DNA of 64,000 nucleotides from an uncultured beta proteobacterium (lineage in GTDB: Bacteria > Pseudomonadota > Gammaproteobacteria > Burkholderiales > SG8-41), in the NCBI GenBank assembly GCA_963699525.1, contig CAVOUI010000014.1, positions 26,938-90,937 of the forward strand, given 5' to 3'. The notes under the pieces were generated by a model that saw only the letters and a program-made list of their open reading frames with translations, did no database searches and was not told the origin of the DNA. The first letter of the stretch is position 1. The number at the start of each line of letters is the position of its first letter. Made by a program: the position numbers and the translations under genes. This document shows, one piece after another, positions 1,538-7,122 of this stretch.

Positions 1538-2675
1538 TGGCCACCACGGCGGGACGGGTCGAGCGGTTGCTCCAGGCGTGGTTGGTGCCGCGCTGGATCA
1601 CGAACTCACCCGCCTTGAGCTTCACTTCCTGGGTGTCCAGCACCAGCACGATCTCCCCTTCGAGCACGATGCAGAAATCGAGCGTGCGCGTCTTTTGCAT
1701 GTAGGGGTGCGGAGCGAGCGGGGAATAGGTGGACGCGCCGGGCGAGCCCATGGCACGGAAGAACGCCTGGACCTCGCGCGCGCCCACCTTGCCTTTCCAG
1801 CCGTCGTCGGGCGGGAATGTCTCGACGCGGCAGACTGAGCCGCGAGCCGGCGGCTCGAACGTGTGCGGCAGCTGCAGCGTTTCGTAGACGATCTTCGCTG
1901 GCGTGCTGTCGGTGACCCACAGGCGCGCGCAAGCATAGCCCGGCCGGGCGGGATCGGTGCGCACATCGGGCGCCGGGCCGTCGCCCACCAGGGTGGATCG
2001 TCCCGGCTCGCGGTCGATCGTGACGATTCTGCGCGTGGGCTTCACGCCCGCCGGAAGCTTCGGCGCGGCGCGCATCGGCATGTCCTTTCCCTGGGCGAGC
2101 CCCTGCGGCCCGTCGACGAAGCGCGCGGCGATCATGTCGAAGGCCATCATCGCCCCCTTCGGCATGACCCACTGGTGCCAGGCGCCGACCTGGATCACGA
2201 CGTCGCCCGGCTTCATCACGAGCTTGCGGTCGTCGAGGATGAGCTCGCGCTCGCCGGCGAGCACGATGCCGTAGTCCACGGTCTCGGTCTTGTGCATGGC
2301 CGAGGAGTAGGCGTTGTTGCCGCCGCGGTCCCACGTTCCGCGGGCTCCCGGCCGGGGCTTCGGCGGGTGGGCCGGCACGGCACTCTTGTCCCTGGCCGGG
2401 TCGTAGTTCGCCGGCCGCACGCGCGCCTCGACGACGCGCAGGTGCCCGCCCTCGGGCGGCCCCGCGAAGGCGTACTCGAGTTTCCCGTCGTCGTAGTCCC
2501 CGGAAAGGGGAGCGGGGGAATCCGTCCAGACCCAGAGATCGGTGTGCCCGCGGCCGGTGCCCATCGACGCTTCATGCGCGTTCGGCGCCGGCCCGTCCCA
2601 CACCACCTTCGAATGGCCGCGCGCGTCGTTTCCGGTCACCACGCGCCGGATCGGGGTCAGCTGGACTTCGGATCA
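1512..2675 (-). CDS. Tandem (double) cupin-domain protein
   Basis: Two units: RRVVTG...MHKTETVDYGIV..GDVVIQ.G..HQW and RRIVT...MQKTRTLDFCIV..GEFVIQRGTNHAWSN. The ORF track starts at 2642; the true start is probably the ATG overlapping the upstream stop near 2675, with a 1-nt indel. Confidence 0.8.
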
Positions 2676-3575
2676 TCCGTCATCATTGCGCTTAGGACAG
2701 GTGAATGCCACGGGCGTGCCCTCGCCGTCTGTCGGGCTGTGCCCGAGTCCGATGACCCCGCTCGCGCGCAGCATCAGCTCCTCGCGCCGCAGCACCACTT
2801 CCTCCGCCTCGCCGGCGAAGCGCACCCAGGTGCCGTTCGAGCTGTGATCGGCGAGCACGAACTTGTCGCGCCGCCGCTCGATCCGCGCGTGCTGGCGCGA
2901 GGCCTTGCGGTCGCCGACGACGATATCGCAGCCGCCGTCGCGCCCGATGGAAAACTCGCCGGGCCCCTCGAAGAGCCACTCGCGGCCCTCGCACTTCAGC
3001 ACGAGCCGGGCGAGGCGGCTGTGTTCGGTGCGCGTTCCGAGCGCCGTCAGGTCCTCGCTGTCCTGCCACAGGAACTCGAAGATCGCCACGGCCTGCTGCT
3101 TGCCCTTGACGGGCACGCGGCTCAACTGGCGCGCGCGCTCGGCGAGCGCCGGGGGAAGCTTCTCGACCGTGTCCGCGGTGGTGATGATCTGCCCGACCTT
3201 CGCGACCCCGGCGACGCGCGCGGCGAGGTTCACCGCGTCGCCGTACAGATCGCCCGCTCTTTCGAGCACCGGCCCGAAATGACAGCCGATATGGATGCCG
3301 AGGCCGGGCTGGCCGGGTTCCTGCTGTTCCTCGGTCTTCTCCTGCATCAGGCGCGAGGCGCGCAGGGCGGCATCGGCGGTCTCGAACATGCACATCGCGC
3401 CGTCGCCCGTGTTCTTGATGACCCTGCCGCCGCAGTCCTCGCAGACCCGGGCGAGCATGGACAGCGAGCGCTCCACGACCGCCAGCGCCCGCTCGTCGCC
3501 GATCGTCTCGTAGAGGCGGGTGCTGCCGCTCAGGTCCACGAACAGGACCGCGCGGGTGATGGGGGAGGAGATCAT
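2673..3575 (-). CDS. Class III adenylate cyclase fused to a C-terminal FHA domain
   Basis: LFVDLSGST, IKNTGDG, GDLYGDAVNLAARV cyclase motifs with the ATP-specifying K/D pair; FHA motifs IGR...SRQHA...D.SSNGT; start at MISSPIT (3575). Confidence 0.9.
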   Translation of the reverse strand: MISSPITRAVLFVDLSGSTRLYETIGDERALAVVERSLSMLARVCEDCGGRVIKNTGDGAMCMFETADAALRASRLMQEKTEEQQEPGQPGLGIHIGCHFGPVLERAGDLYGDAVNLAARVAGVAKVGQIITTADTVEKLPPALAERARQLSRVPVKGKQQAVAIFEFLWQDSEDLTALGTRTEHSRLARLVLKCEGREWLFEGPGEFSIGRDGGCDIVVGDRKASRQHARIERRRDKFVLADHSSNGTWVRFAGEAEEVVLRREELMLRASGVIGLGHSPTDGEGTPVAFTCPKRNDDG

Positions 3576-3842
3576 GGGGAAGTTGGCCGCCGCCCAGTAT
3601 AGGACAATCGAGGCCCGGGTCCGCCGCGAGTCAGCGGAGAAAGCGTATTGAGAGGTTTTCGCCGCCGCGCCTAGTTGATTACTACCAGCCCCTGCCTGCC
3701 GGCAAACGATGGGGTTAACGGATCCGGCCGGATTAGTGACAAACGGTGGGAACGGCACTAGTATCCCGCTGACCGAAGCCTCCCGTCGTTTAGAGAGGCT
3801 CGGAGTTGTAACGTCGTCGCTGGAGGGGCAGGGGAAAAGCGC

Positions 3843-4721
3843 TTGCGAATCGTGCTTCCGGTGCACTGGGGGTTCGTCCTGCTCGCCTGTCCTCTGATCG
3901 CGGCGGCGGCGGACCCGCTTCCGACTCTGACGCTGCTCGAGGGGCCGGCCGGGCTCGTGCGCGGCGTGACGCGCTACACGCTCGCGGAGGGCGTGCGGAT
4001 GCAGTCCGGCGACATCATCGAGGTCGGCGATAAGGCGCTCGCGGAAATCGAATTTCCGGACGGCGCCGCGATTTCGTTGGGCGCCGGAACGCGCGTGCTG
4101 ACGGTTTCCATGCCGCGCGGCACGGCCGCCGCCGCGGAATACTACTTGACGCAGGGAGCGCTCAAGGTCTCGGGAGTGAGCAAGGCCGCGCGTTTCCGCA
4201 TCGCGACCCCTGCGCTCATCCTGCAGCCAGTGGAAGGCGTGTCCGTGATGATCGTGCGCGGCGACGAGGGCTCGGTGTTCGTCGAGAGCGGAGCAGCGCG
4301 CCTCACCGCGGGGCCCGCGACGCTCAACCTCAAGAGCGGCGAGTTTTTCGACCGCAGGAGCGGGCAGAAGGGCACCGTCGCGCCGCGCCCGTCCCAGGCG
4401 TTCATTGCCGCGATGCCGAAAGCCTTTTTCGATCCGCTGCCTTCGCGCATGGCGCGCTACAAGGAGCGCGAGGTGCAGCCGAGGCGGGGGGACGACGTGA
4501 GCTACGCGGAAGTCGAGACGTGGCTGAAAGCGCCACCCGCGATTCGCCGCCCGCTGGTCACGCGCTTCGAGCCGCGCGCGTCCGATCCGAAGTTCCGGGC
4601 CGGGTTGGAAGCAAACCTCAGGTTCCACCCGGAGTGGGACCCGATCCTGTACCCGGAAAAGTATGAGTCCACGGAGACCGCGGCGGAGGCGAAGGGCGCC
4701 AAGCCCGCCGCAAAGAAGTGA
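3843..4721 (+). CDS. Exported FecR-like beta-sandwich domain protein
   Basis: Signal peptide (GFVLLACPLIAAAA), GDIIEVG..ALAEIEFPDGAAISLGAGT..LTQGALK..IATP FecR-like pattern; TTG start. Confidence 0.7.
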   Translation: MRIVLPVHWGFVLLACPLIAAAADPLPTLTLLEGPAGLVRGVTRYTLAEGVRMQSGDIIEVGDKALAEIEFPDGAAISLGAGTRVLTVSMPRGTAAAAEYYLTQGALKVSGVSKAARFRIATPALILQPVEGVSVMIVRGDEGSVFVESGAARLTAGPATLNLKSGEFFDRRSGQKGTVAPRPSQAFIAAMPKAFFDPLPSRMARYKEREVQPRRGDDVSYAEVETWLKAPPAIRRPLVTRFEPRASDPKFRAGLEANLRFHPEWDPILYPEKYESTETAAEAKGAKPAAKK

Positions 4722-4745
4722 CGACTGTTTGCTAGGAGGCCCATC

Positions 4746-5621
4746 ATGAAGCTGATCGTCAAGTTCAACCTGGTTTTCATCGTGGTGTTTCTGCTCGGGC
4801 TTGCCGCGGCGGCCACCGTCTCGGATCAGCTTCTGCAGAGGAACGCGCGCGAGGAGATCGTGCTGAACGCGCGCCTGGTGATGGAATCGGCGCTCGCCGC
4901 GCGCGCCTATACCTCGACCCAGGTGGGGCCGCTCCTGCAGACGCAGATGAAGTACAAGTTCCTGCCGCAGTCGGTGCCCGCGTACTCGGCCAACGAGATA
5001 TTCGACGTCGTGCGCAAGAAGTTCCCCGAGTACGCCTACAAGGAGGCGGTGCTCAATCCCACCAACCCGCGCAACCGCGCCAACGACTGGGAGGCGGACA
5101 TCGTCCACCAGTTCCGCAACGCTTCCGACCGGCCGGAGCTGGTCGGCGAGCGCGACACGCCGACCGGACGGTCCTTCTACATCGCGCGCCCGATGCAGAT
5201 CAAGGCGGAGGCCTGCCTCTACTGCCACTCGACGGTGGAAGCCGCGCCCAAGACGCTGGTGGAACAGTACGGCCCGGCCAACGGCTTCGGCTGGAAGATG
5301 AACGAGGTCATCGGCGCGCAGATCGTATCGGTGCCGACCGAGGTGCCGATCGAGCGCGCCAACCGGGCGTTCAAGACCTTCATGGTGTCGCTCACCGCGG
5401 TGTTCGTGTTCATCTTCATCGCGCTGAACCTCATGCTCTGGTACCTGGTGATCCGGCCGGTGACGAAGCTGTCGCGGCTTGCCGACCAGGTGAGCCAGGG
5501 CGAGAATATGGATGCGCCCGACTTCGAGGTGAAGAGCGGCGACGAGATCGGCGTGCTCACGCAATCCTTCAACCGCATGAAGAAGAGCCTGGTGCAGGCG
5601 ATGAAGATGCTCGAGCAGTAG
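4746..5621 (+). CDS. Membrane sensor: TM, DUF3365/Tll0287-like c-type heme domain, TM, HAMP; no output domain
   Basis: Two hydrophobic helices flanking LNPTNPRNRANDWE..CLYCH..GFGWKMNEVIGAQIVSVP; HAMP IRPV..L...ADQVS.G..DEIG.L..SFNRM immediately before the stop. Confidence 0.88.
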   Translation: MKLIVKFNLVFIVVFLLGLAAAATVSDQLLQRNAREEIVLNARLVMESALAARAYTSTQVGPLLQTQMKYKFLPQSVPAYSANEIFDVVRKKFPEYAYKEAVLNPTNPRNRANDWEADIVHQFRNASDRPELVGERDTPTGRSFYIARPMQIKAEACLYCHSTVEAAPKTLVEQYGPANGFGWKMNEVIGAQIVSVPTEVPIERANRAFKTFMVSLTAVFVFIFIALNLMLWYLVIRPVTKLSRLADQVSQGENMDAPDFEVKSGDEIGVLTQSFNRMKKSLVQAMKMLEQ

Positions 5622-5643
5622 CGCGCCTCGAGAACGGACCCTG

Positions 5644-7122
5644 ATGGCGACCCCTCCTCAATCGACGGACGGCCCCCGGCAGCTCGGCAAGTACGCGATT
5701 TCCGAGGTGCTGGGCAAGGGCGCGATGGGGGTGGTCTACAAGGCCTTCGATCCGCACATCCGCCGCACCGTCGCGCTGAAGACCATCCGCCGCGAGGTGG
5801 TGGACGACGATCAGGCCTCCATGCTGCTCGCGCGCTTTCAGAACGAGGCGCAGGCGGGCGGGCGGCTGTCGCATCCCGGCATCGTCGGCGTCTACGAGTG
5901 GGGGGAGACCGGCGACCTGGTCTTTCTCGCGATGGAGTACGTGCAGGGCAACAGCCTGCGCGAGTACTTCAACCGCGGCACGCGCTTCGAGGTCCGCGAC
6001 GCGGTCAGCATCATGGCGCAGCTGCTCGACGCCCTGCACTACGCGCACGAGCAGGGCGTGTGGCATCGCGACATCAAGCCGGCCAACCTCATCATCATGA
6101 ACAACGGCAAGCTGAAGGTCGCGGACTTCGGCATCGCCCGCATCGACACGTCGAACCTCACGCAGGCCGGCGCCGTCCTCGGCACGCCCGGCTACATGGC
6201 GCCGGAGCAGTACAGCGGCGACACCGTCGACTGGCGCGCCGACATCTTCTCCGCCGGGGTGGTGCTCTACCAGCTGCTGACGGGTGTCCGCCCCTTCATC
6301 GGCAATGCGGAGGCGCTCGCCTACAAGATCTGCCACGAGCAGCCGGCCCTTCCGTCGGAGGCCGATCCGGGGCGCTGCACGACGCAGTTCGACGCCGTCG
6401 CGACGAAGGCGCTCGCCAAGCCCCCGGAGGCGCGCTACCAGACCGCGCTGGCGTTCCGGGAGGCGCTGCTCGCAAGCTTCGCCCAGCCGGTCAGTCCCGC
6501 CGTATCGGAAGAGACGATCATCAACGAACCGATCCCGCCCAAGGGATCCCAGGAGGCGTCGCAGCCGTCGCAGCCATCTCACGCCTCGCCGTCGGCCCTG
6601 ACGCCGTCCGCCCCCTCCGCATCCTCCCCGAGCTCGTCGAACCCGGGCGGGAAGACGATCCCGCCCCCCGGATGGGACCCCGCCGTGTTGAAGCAGATCG
6701 AGCAGCAGCTTGCGCGCCTCGTCGGTCCGGTGGCCAAGGTGATGGTGCACCGTGGGGCGAGCGCCACCACCGACATCAGCCGGCTCTACCGCATGCTTGC
6801 GGAAAATCTCGCGAACCCGGACGAGCGCTCGTCGTTCCTTGCCGGACGGCAGAAGCTGCAGGGCGTTGCGCCGCGCGACGCCGAGACGACCGCCGCGCAG
6901 CAGCGGGCGCCCACGACCGGGCTGACGGTGCAGCTCACCGCCGCGGCGATCGAAGAAGCGACCCGGAAGCTGTCGGCGTACCTGGGACCGATTGCGAAGG
7001 TCGTCGCGAAGCGGGCGGCGGCGCAGGCGACGAGCCGCAACCACTTTCATCAGTTGCTCGCCGAGAATCTCACCGATCCCAAGGAGCGCGCCCGATTCCT
7101 GCACGACGTCGGTGCCGGGTGA
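5644..7122 (+). CDS. Hanks-type Ser/Thr protein kinase with S/P-rich linker and two C-terminal helical repeats
   Basis: LGKGAMGVVY, VALK, HRDIKPAN, DFG, GTPGYMAPE, DIFS.G motifs; no transmembrane helix. Confidence 0.95.
   Translation: MATPPQSTDGPRQLGKYAISEVLGKGAMGVVYKAFDPHIRRTVALKTIRREVVDDDQASMLLARFQNEAQAGGRLSHPGIVGVYEWGETGDLVFLAMEYVQGNSLREYFNRGTRFEVRDAVSIMAQLLDALHYAHEQGVWHRDIKPANLIIMNNGKLKVADFGIARIDTSNLTQAGAVLGTPGYMAPEQYSGDTVDWRADIFSAGVVLYQLLTGVRPFIGNAEALAYKICHEQPALPSEADPGRCTTQFDAVATKALAKPPEARYQTALAFREALLASFAQPVSPAVSEETIINEPIPPKGSQEASQPSQPSHASPSALTPSAPSASSPSSSNPGGKTIPPPGWDPAVLKQIEQQLARLVGPVAKVMVHRGASATTDISRLYRMLAENLANPDERSSFLAGRQKLQGVAPRDAETTAAQQRAPTTGLTVQLTAAAIEEATRKLSAYLGPIAKVVAKRAAAQATSRNHFHQLLAENLTDPKERARFLHDVGAG

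Follow-up and report, generated by a model that had tools for sequence, protein, structure and literature searches.

In a 64,000-nucleotide stretch of the genome of an uncultured beta proteobacterium (Burkholderiales, SG8-41; assembly GCA_963699525.1, contig CAVOUI010000014.1, positions 26,938 to 90,937), called the window throughout, four genes lie around one divergent gap between positions 2673 and 7122. Three of them are on the plus strand, separated by 24 and 22 bases, and encode in this order an exported FecR-like protein, a membrane-bound heme sensor and a soluble Ser/Thr kinase. The fourth, on the opposite strand, encodes a class III adenylate cyclase fused to an FHA domain (Table 1). 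Open reading frame (ORF) calls, Pfam and hydropathy bear out both the gene positions and the domains named in the original prediction, which had been made from the sequence alone and which joined the four genes in a single signalling cascade. No NCBIfam model reached its cut-off with any of the four proteins.

Table 1. Coordinates of the features discussed in the text. Positions are those of the window unless preceded by a locus number (L), which refers to loci collected from other genomes. TM, transmembrane segment; AF2, AlphaFold2.
Feature	Position	Strand	Basis
Class III adenylate cyclase with C-terminal FHA domain, 300 aa	2673..3575	-	Pfam Guanylate_cyc, FHA
FHA domain, residues ~206-290	2706..2960	-	Pfam FHA 209-252, E 4.5e-13
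Linker Thr177 codon, [DE]-L-T motif between cyclase and FHA	3045..3047	-	Candidate phospho-acceptor, putative role
Cyclase catalytic domain, residues 9-162	3090..3551	-	Pfam Guanylate_cyc, E 1.2e-12
Divergent intergenic region between cyclase-FHA and FecR-like genes	3576..3842		267 bases, from sequence
Exported FecR-fold protein with helical C-terminal domain, 292 aa	3843..4721	+	Pfam FecR, AF2 model
CHH receptor: TM1, periplasmic Cache_heme (DUF3365/Tll0287), TM2, HAMP; 291 aa	4746..5621	+	Pfam, hydropathy, full-length relatives
CXXCH heme c motif CLYCH, sensor residues 157-161	5214..5228	+	Sequence, alignments
HAMP domain, sensor residues 234-283	5445..5594	+	Pfam; loop opens Ser250-Gln251-Gly252
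Soluble Hanks-type Ser/Thr kinase with C-terminal dyad docking module, 492 aa	5644..7122	+	Pfam Pkinase, hydropathy
Two helical repeats, kinase residues ~341-400 and ~428-487	6664..7104	+	Motifs VGPVAKVMV (360), LGPIAKVVA (447)
Cyclase-dyad proteins, examples	L126:7842-8981	-	
	L128:9421-10593	+	
	L036:7899-8960	+	
	17 further loci		

Components of the locus

By its sequence and domain order, the sensor is a member of the CHH receptor family. The Tll0287-like/DUF3365 domain matches Pfam PF11845 (E = 2.2e-41), TM-like stretches are found at residues 1-30 and 207-240 of the hydropathy profile, and the residues of the heme motif (C157, C160 and H161) are invariant in both sets of aligned sensors (14/14 and 47/47). 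The protein stops eight residues past the HAMP domain, which is thus its last domain, with no enzymatic output, and over 100 relatives have the same length. At the start of the HAMP loop Ser250 and Gly252 are invariant among the aligned sensors and position 251 is variable, being Leu, Gln or Met in most FecR-linked sensors and Thr in about a third of the other CHH sensors.

Two preprints of 2026, both by the Crane and Zhulin groups, describe the family to which this sensor is assigned. In the first, DUF3365/Tll0287 is redefined as a heme c Cache domain, and a HAMP-only protein of Pseudomonas azotoformans is reported to bind nitric oxide (NO) (10.64898/2026.02.01.703092). Among CHH receptors, covalent heme c and NO binding are reported for this protein only. 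In the second, which appeared in May 2026 (Deshpande, Xu, Dunleavy, Zhulin and Crane; bioRxiv 10.64898/2026.05.25.727664), the P. azotoformans CHH receptor is reported to bind the kinase of its operon with nanomolar affinity through two helical repeats at the kinase's C-terminus, whose HAMP-contacting helices IGPLARFLVRKSLN and IGPIARIVVSRALR are resolved in a cryo-EM structure at 3.47 A. The same account has the kinase docked constitutively, with HAMP as its substrate: Thr256, at the start of the AS1-AS2 loop, is phosphorylated, more strongly when NO is bound. The downstream consequences of the receptor-kinase pair are stated there as unknown. The main text of that preprint is without the terms 'FecR', 'FHA' and 'cAMP' and names PP2C as the only, occasional, neighbour, and its supplementary neighbourhood figure may show more.

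The kinase of the window follows this model. Its Pkinase domain (residues 17-265, E = 7e-53) carries the PknB-like catalytic motifs TVALK, HRDIK and ADFG and a PknB-like activation-loop Thr in LTQAG, and the protein has neither a TM-like stretch nor PASTA domains. The two C-terminal repeats, referred to as the dyad, resemble the published HAMP-contacting helices, and the motifs at residues 360 and 447 place the sensor-kinase half of the locus in the family of CHH receptors with docked kinases. Common to the two systems are a receptor composed of TM, DUF3365 with CXXCH, TM and an output-less HAMP, and a soluble, PknB-like kinase encoded beside it with two repeats that contain an [ILV]GP[ILVM]A[KR] helix. 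Docking of the window's kinase repeats on the HAMP domain of its sensor is predicted from this motif conservation and from the adjacency of the genes. Applied to 76 adjacent kinases, a strict regular expression for the dyad found both motifs in 33, a single one in 38 and neither in five, and the repeats are judged better by tblastn coverage of the whole C-terminal region than by that expression. In a search aimed at mapping Thr256, the exact P. azotoformans helices had no match in any locus collected.

These comparisons bear on the original prediction. Its suggestion that a HAMP-only heme sensor acts in trans with a soluble kinase has been demonstrated for the P. azotoformans homologue, as the preprint reports, and the window's kinase has the same dyad motifs. 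Its remark that no characterised pathway has this wiring is outdated for the sensor-kinase half, and a simple relay of the signal from HAMP to kinase does not fit a published kinase that is constitutively docked and takes the HAMP domain as its substrate (10.64898/2026.05.25.727664).

The FecR-like protein has no counterpart in the comparison above; it is this periplasmic protein, and in part the FHA-domain effectors, that the window's subfamily adds to the P. azotoformans system. It scores 29.3 bits against the Pfam FecR model (cut-off 24) and has a hydrophobic, signal-peptide-like N-terminus that runs straight into a beta domain. The AF2 model (pLDDT 91.8) consists of this beta domain (residues 28-180) and a set of helices (185-283). 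Foldseek aligned the beta domain over about 136-140 columns with the BDI_1681 anti-sigma factor of Parabacteroides (E = 5e-7) and the C-terminal signalling domain of PupR (E = 3e-6), the matched structures being 4m0h, 4m0n and 6ovk_R; it returned no Protein Data Bank (PDB) match for the helical C-terminal domain. The likeness to the FecR/PupR anti-sigma regulators therein is one of beta-domain fold and Pfam match. The window's protein differs from them in its extra helical domain, in lacking both a cytoplasmic anti-sigma domain and, apart from the signal peptide, a membrane anchor, and in the absence of an ECF sigma gene, of which Pfam found none among the eight genes around the locus. Without a cytoplasmic anti-sigma part or a sigma partner, the protein is therefore not a FecR-type regulator in function. 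A complex prediction of the FecR-like protein (residues 24-292) with the periplasmic part of the sensor (26-208) and heme, based on paired 47-row alignments, reached a median score of 0.31 where the mark is 0.32, while controls scored 0.00-0.01; it speaks neither for nor against binding.

The cyclase-FHA protein has its best PDB sequence matches in 3mr7 (E = 7e-17) and the Ma1120 cyclase (E = 3e-13). Alignments with these and with 20 relatives confirm the catalytic residues listed in the original prediction: the metal Asp residues (in FVDLSG and GDG), the Lys of IKNTGDG and the Asp, Asn and Arg of GDLYGDAVNLAAR are all kept, and the Asp of the substrate pair lies in GDLYGDAVN. We take these to be, respectively, the two metal-binding Asp, the substrate-specifying Lys/Asp pair and the transition-state Asn and Arg. 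FHA domains are specific for phosphothreonine (pThr), and the motifs of the pThr pocket are present here as IGRD, ASRQH and SNGT. Across the cyclase-FHA family Ser226, Arg227, His229 and Gly248 are invariant (42/42 members), and both Thr249 and the linker Thr177 are kept as Thr in 40 of 42. From their sequences, both the cyclase and the FHA parts look competent. Literature searches on the topic found no paper on a characterised bacterial FHA-cyclase fusion.

Gene neighbourhoods in other genomes

Three samples were used to ask how the four genes keep company. A search with the sensor in one genome per species returned at least 578 relatives, from which the best 80 loci were taken (60-93% identical, nearly all Burkholderiales, one Rudaea). 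An order sample comprised 401 evenly drawn Burkholderiales genomes, 50 of which have the sensor (G638 included); 42 loci were examined, leaving out G638, four weaker full-length matches and partial matches. A class sample of 400 genomes across the class supplied 34 sensor loci from other orders, and ten loci at about 55% identity (L036-L045) formed a further set.

Among the best 80 loci of the at least 578 relatives, the FecR-like gene stands directly 5' of the sensor in 71 of the 77 with at least 1 kb upstream, and a repeat-bearing kinase directly 3' of it in 71 of the 74 with at least 1.6 kb downstream. The order sample divides into 16 FecR-type and 26 other loci, and sensor and kinase are adjacent in all 14 evaluable FecR-type loci and in 17 of the 26 non-FecR loci. 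A FecR gene was beside the sensor in none of the 34 class-sample loci. The conserved unit is a triad of FecR-like protein, sensor and kinase, and the cyclase-FHA protein is one of several alternative FHA partners. In one clade (L072:7001-9008, plus strand, with L065 and L073) genes for a NapC/NirT-type tetraheme cytochrome and a CoxE-like VWA protein lie upstream of the FecR gene, which hints at a respiratory or redox context of the sensor.

Of the 68 loci in which 2.7 kb or more is available upstream, 14 have the cyclase-FHA gene divergent from the FecR gene, as do four more with short flanks, and the gene is present in seven of ten orthologous loci of the window's genus. On the tree of sensors, loci with this arrangement are spread over four or more separate clades, Casimicrobiaceae among them; ten changes are needed to explain the distribution, of which the well-supported branches force at least five. 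The divergent arrangement still holds in loci whose sensor is as little as 63% identical and whose cyclase is 43-51% identical. It also recurs in the class sample at L150, a locus of another order with 45% GC, where a cyclase-FHA gene is directly divergent from a 44%-identical sensor and FecR is absent. Both genes occur together in 30 genomes of the order sample; no more than 3.2 kb separates them in five of these, which belong to three families, and 5-10.6 kb in a further four of one genus. The four-gene arrangement is found far above chance frequency. The survey of gene neighbourhoods that the original prediction had called for found the cyclase-FHA gene together with the triad in other genomes, so that the refuting outcome named there, a lack of joint conservation of the four genes, did not arise. 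The place downstream that it gave to the cyclase-FHA protein gains from the four or more clades, from L150, from the other FHA effectors and from the cyclase-dyad fusions described below; its four genes do not form a fixed unit.

By FHA-profile search, the triad has an ORF with an FHA domain for a neighbour in 34 of the 80 loci, namely 18 cyclase-FHA, 15 TagH and one FHA-only protein (L076), and 46 triads have no FHA neighbour. In the order sample an FHA gene lies within 6.5 kb of the triad in nine of the 16 FecR-type loci (four cyclase-FHA, three TagH and two FHA-PP2C). The FHA-PP2C proteins are FHA-SpoIIE/PP2C fusions from two genomes of a single genus, and their genes lie immediately 5' of the FecR gene; the fusion at L214:1246-2448 (plus strand) is confirmed by Pfam, and that at L217 is assigned from an FHA-profile match and sequence likeness. 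In a genome of another order an FHA-GGDEF gene (L151:11306-12232, minus strand) follows just after the docked kinase, convergent with the kinase gene.

The TagH neighbours belong to type VI secretion system (T6SS) clusters. The triad lies inside such a cluster in 16 of the 80 loci (L063, L067, L069, L079, L085, L093, L105, L111, L122 and L123 among them), in 15 of which TagH is beside it, and again in L207, L208 and L216. One representative TagH was identified by Pfam (FHA and T6SS_FHA_C), and the others match that representative by tblastn. TssL and TssM are nearby, PP2C is present in four loci, and two gene orders can be told apart, one in Piscinibacter, Rhizobacter and Azohydromonas and the other in Variovorax; relatives of these genera have the triad in such clusters too. 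Within these clusters the triad occupies the place that the receptor kinase PpkA holds in other bacteria. The position of the triad in T6SS clusters implies heme- or NO-gated T6SS firing. In the threonine phosphorylation pathway of the Pseudomonas aeruginosa H1-T6SS (kinase PpkA/TagE, phosphatase PppA/TagG and FHA protein Fha1/TagH), an envelope signal likewise acts on a Hanks kinase, and an FHA protein is recruited and phosphorylated and switches an effector (PMC13584744). PpkA differs as a membrane receptor kinase driven by TagQRST, whereas the window's kinase is soluble and predicted to be docked on a heme receptor, and in the window it is a cyclase that carries the FHA domain. By tblastn the window's genome has no TagH, TssM or TssL, the lone match being an OmpA-like tail. 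A passage search of the 2026 review of T6SS accessory factors found DUF3365, HAMP, heme and FecR in none of the passages returned (PMC13584744).

A second route from the receptor to a cyclase was found in lineages without FecR, in which a cyclase-dyad protein often replaces the kinase as the product of the gene after the sensor. These proteins of 350-390 aa, encoded directly 3' of the sensor, combine an N-terminal Guanylate_cyc domain (Pfam) with kinase-type repeats at the C-terminus (motifs IGPLAKLLVKR and LGPVAKILVKR). The C-terminus of the window's kinase matches that of a cyclase-dyad protein by BLASTP at E = 1e-27, with 35% of 154 residues identical. A gene for such a protein comes next after the sensor in 10 of 34 class-sample loci, eight of 42 order-sample loci and two of the ten loci at about 55% identity, one of these in the window's genus. 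At L128, L130 and L137 the sensor lies between a kinase-dyad gene and a cyclase-dyad gene, and the proteins of L126 and L128 have a residue other than Lys at the usual ATP-specifying Lys position. Class III cyclases are repeatedly wired to CHH receptors via two routes, and this provides the strongest indirect support for the cyclase as a member of the pathway.

Cyclase-FHA genes also occur away from the receptor. In 20 cyclase-FHA loci without a sensor within 9 kb, a Ser/Thr (Hanks) kinase lies within about 2.5 kb in eight. In six of these eight the catalytic domain shares 50-55% identity with that of the window's kinase, and these six have, in place of docking repeats, a TM segment with a large C-terminal domain, or coiled-coil or Sel1 regions. 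In a tree of kinase catalytic domains the receptor-type kinases beside other cyclase-FHA genes group next to the FecR-type docked kinases (SH-aLRT 82, from a quick search, in a polytomy), a placement that is only a hint. The kinase and cyclase-FHA protein look like a recurrent pair with differing sensory front ends. Cyclase-FHA genes often form tandem pairs (L202 (G795:C55), L179, L162 and others), with up to five copies in some genomes.

The window's genome beyond the locus

The source assembly comprises 3.8 Mb in 26 contigs, and its nearest relatives are uncultured soil Burkholderiales. It encodes nine Hanks kinases and, within its 3.8 Mb, three FHA loci. Outside the window, a second cyclase-FHA protein, 40% identical to the first, is encoded at contig C18:61377-62219 (L161:5360-6274) among housekeeping genes (PCMT, endonuclease V, dehydrogenase and MFS) with no kinase nearby. 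The third FHA locus, also outside the window, is an operon on contig C12 (C12:277500-281500; L160:2025-5978) that encodes a PP2C phosphatase together with an FHA-only protein and a CHASE2 class III cyclase. Each of the three FHA loci in this genome therefore has a cyclase, either in one protein with the FHA domain or next to it. No PP2C other than that of the operon turned up in the genome. Outside the window there are also two further L126-type cyclase-like genes beside Hanks kinases, at C4:239885-241093 (L004:724-1932, minus strand) and C5:351116-351646; the protein encoded on C4 has a TM segment between its cyclase-like N-terminus and a C-terminal PEGA domain, and dyad repeats are absent from it.

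Around the locus itself, the flanking genes encode cupin, NHL, GYD and GST proteins that are unrelated to it and kept within the genus only; the GYD and GST genes 3' of the kinase were considered as parts of the system and rejected on account of this limited conservation. No FNR/Dnr-like or CRP-like box is conserved across 21 orthologous divergent intergenic regions. The scan for FNR/CRP-type boxes in these regions gave two matches, each with two mismatches, one of them in the window and the other elsewhere in the region of L033, and the idea of FNR/CRP control of the divergent promoter was dropped.

A proposed signalling route and its alternatives

Taken together, and with confidence moderately better than even, the locus is read as a Burkholderiales variant of the CHH receptor/docked Ser/Thr kinase system in which the cyclase-FHA protein is the output. 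The relay from heme sensor to kinase, from pThr to FHA and on to cyclic AMP (cAMP) is well supported by the gene neighbourhoods and is unproven. In this relay the sensor, by analogy with its relatives, would bind heme c in the periplasm through CXXCH, and the cytoplasmic HAMP of the sensor dimer would be gripped by the two C-terminal repeats of the soluble kinase. A heme ligand, which is NO in the sole characterised homologue, would alter the kinase's choice of substrate. The FecR-fold protein, presumably co-transcribed from just upstream, may act as a third, periplasmic component, either as a co-sensor or as a modulator of the Cache_heme domain. The divergently encoded adenylate cyclase-FHA protein would be the output, its FHA domain reading pThr made by the kinase. 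The docking pThr would most likely be on the autophosphorylated kinase itself, in the activation loop, and the kinase may then phosphorylate the cyclase linker at Thr177. Contacts between pThr and FHA, within or between subunits, would alter the catalytic cyclase dimer and change cAMP, by activation or by inhibition. In other genomes the triad seems to signal to different FHA effectors, namely TagH, FHA-GGDEF and FHA-PP2C.

The conservation of Thr177 and the invariant FHA pocket suggest a mechanism of the OdhI/GarA or Chk2 type. In OdhI/GarA and Chk2/Rad53 a conserved Thr beside the FHA domain is phosphorylated by a Hanks-type kinase and the pThr is bound by FHA in cis or in trans. The cyclase-FHA protein shares with these a Thr next to FHA in one polypeptide; it differs in that the controlled module would be a class III cyclase dimer and Thr177 is only a candidate site.

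A quite improbable alternative, and the wiring of the original prediction, is that the FHA domain docks on the phosphorylated HAMP of the receptor and not on the kinase, so that the cyclase would be recruited to the membrane receptor and make cAMP locally. The published kinase does phosphorylate a HAMP Thr, more so with NO (10.64898/2026.05.25.727664). The cyclase-dyad fusions show that cyclases can work at a CHH HAMP. Set against HAMP docking are the specificity of FHA domains for pThr and the loop start of this sensor, where position 251 is Gln, as it is Leu, Gln or Met in most FecR-linked sensors, and only Ser250 is invariant. Also against it, the dyad repeats already cover the HAMP surface in the published structure (10.64898/2026.05.25.727664).

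It is very improbable that the cyclase-FHA protein is a modulator or decoy that limits the phosphorylated kinase, the true output lying elsewhere (transcription or another substrate) and cAMP being incidental. The 46 of 80 triads that lack an FHA neighbour must have their output encoded elsewhere, and an FHA-PP2C, able to reverse phosphorylation, stands beside the triad in L214 and L217. Yet the catalytic residues of the cyclase are conserved, and enzymatic partners recur as cyclases, GGDEF proteins and cyclase-dyad fusions.

Several points weigh against the cyclase-FHA protein as the output of the docked kinase. What goes beyond the homology of sensor and kinase, the putative link between cyclase and kinase included, is drawn from gene neighbourhoods in related genomes. 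The cyclase-FHA gene is absent from 54 of the 68 triad loci with enough flank and from three of the ten orthologous loci of the same genus (L031, L032 and L035), which retain the triad. A cyclase-FHA protein of this length occurs in 93 of the 401 order-sample genomes against 50 with the sensor, and most copies lie elsewhere. The counts overstate independence, because adjacent loci are related by descent. The ATP-specifying Lys is replaced by Gln in four of 21 aligned cyclase sequences. The HAMP Thr is the only phosphosite described as mapped in the published system (10.64898/2026.05.25.727664), and it lies at the start of the loop that reads Ser250-Gln251-Gly252 here; in an alignment that does not contain the P. 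azotoformans sequence itself, this phospho-Thr is probably not conserved in the window's sensor. The signal of the FecR-linked subfamily may be NO, redox or another heme ligand. Finally, with nine Hanks kinases and an orphan cyclase-FHA paralogue in the window's genome, cross-talk or control by another kinase is possible.

Several of these points are gathered in the alternative that the triad and the cyclase-FHA protein are neighbours and not partners, another kinase of the genome controlling the cyclase and the adjacency reflecting an inherited clustering of signalling genes. The wide occurrence of cyclase-FHA genes, mostly distant from a sensor, the other kinases that adjoin eight of 20 sensor-less cyclase-FHA loci, the nine kinases and the orphan paralogue, and the loss of the cyclase from three same-genus loci are all in keeping with this explanation. 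Nevertheless, it is considered unlikely, though not negligibly so, given that the divergent arrangement persists in at least four clades down to the sensor and cyclase identities given above, recurs without FecR at the unrelated low-GC locus L150, and has its position filled by other FHA proteins in other genomes, and that FHA genes are rare, with three in the window's genome.

A wider proposal, which is offered tentatively and held with somewhat less than even confidence, would make CHH receptors a hub. Enzymes fused to the dyad, whether kinase or class III cyclase, would dock on the receptor directly, and the docked kinase would relay to a co-encoded FHA protein, with cAMP as the product of cyclase-FHA, c-di-GMP of GGDEF, T6SS firing through TagH and feedback through PP2C. 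The FecR-fold protein would be an obligatory co-receptor in Burkholderiales, and a periplasmic heme ligand such as NO would set cAMP at the locus described here.

The sensor-kinase core is already known, and what is new are the FecR-fold partner, the relay to FHA effectors including an adenylate cyclase, and the cyclase-dyad fusions. The gene neighbourhoods supply testable candidates for the output of the CHH-kinase pair, in the form of an FHA-gated adenylate cyclase and, in cultured Variovorax, Azohydromonas and Rhizobacter, the FHA protein of the T6SS. If the proposed route holds, the FecR-fold protein would be a third conserved component of the system and the HAMP-docking repeat would be a portable adaptor with cyclases among its users. 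A periplasmic heme/NO signal would then be tied to cAMP, c-di-GMP and interbacterial killing through the reading of pThr.

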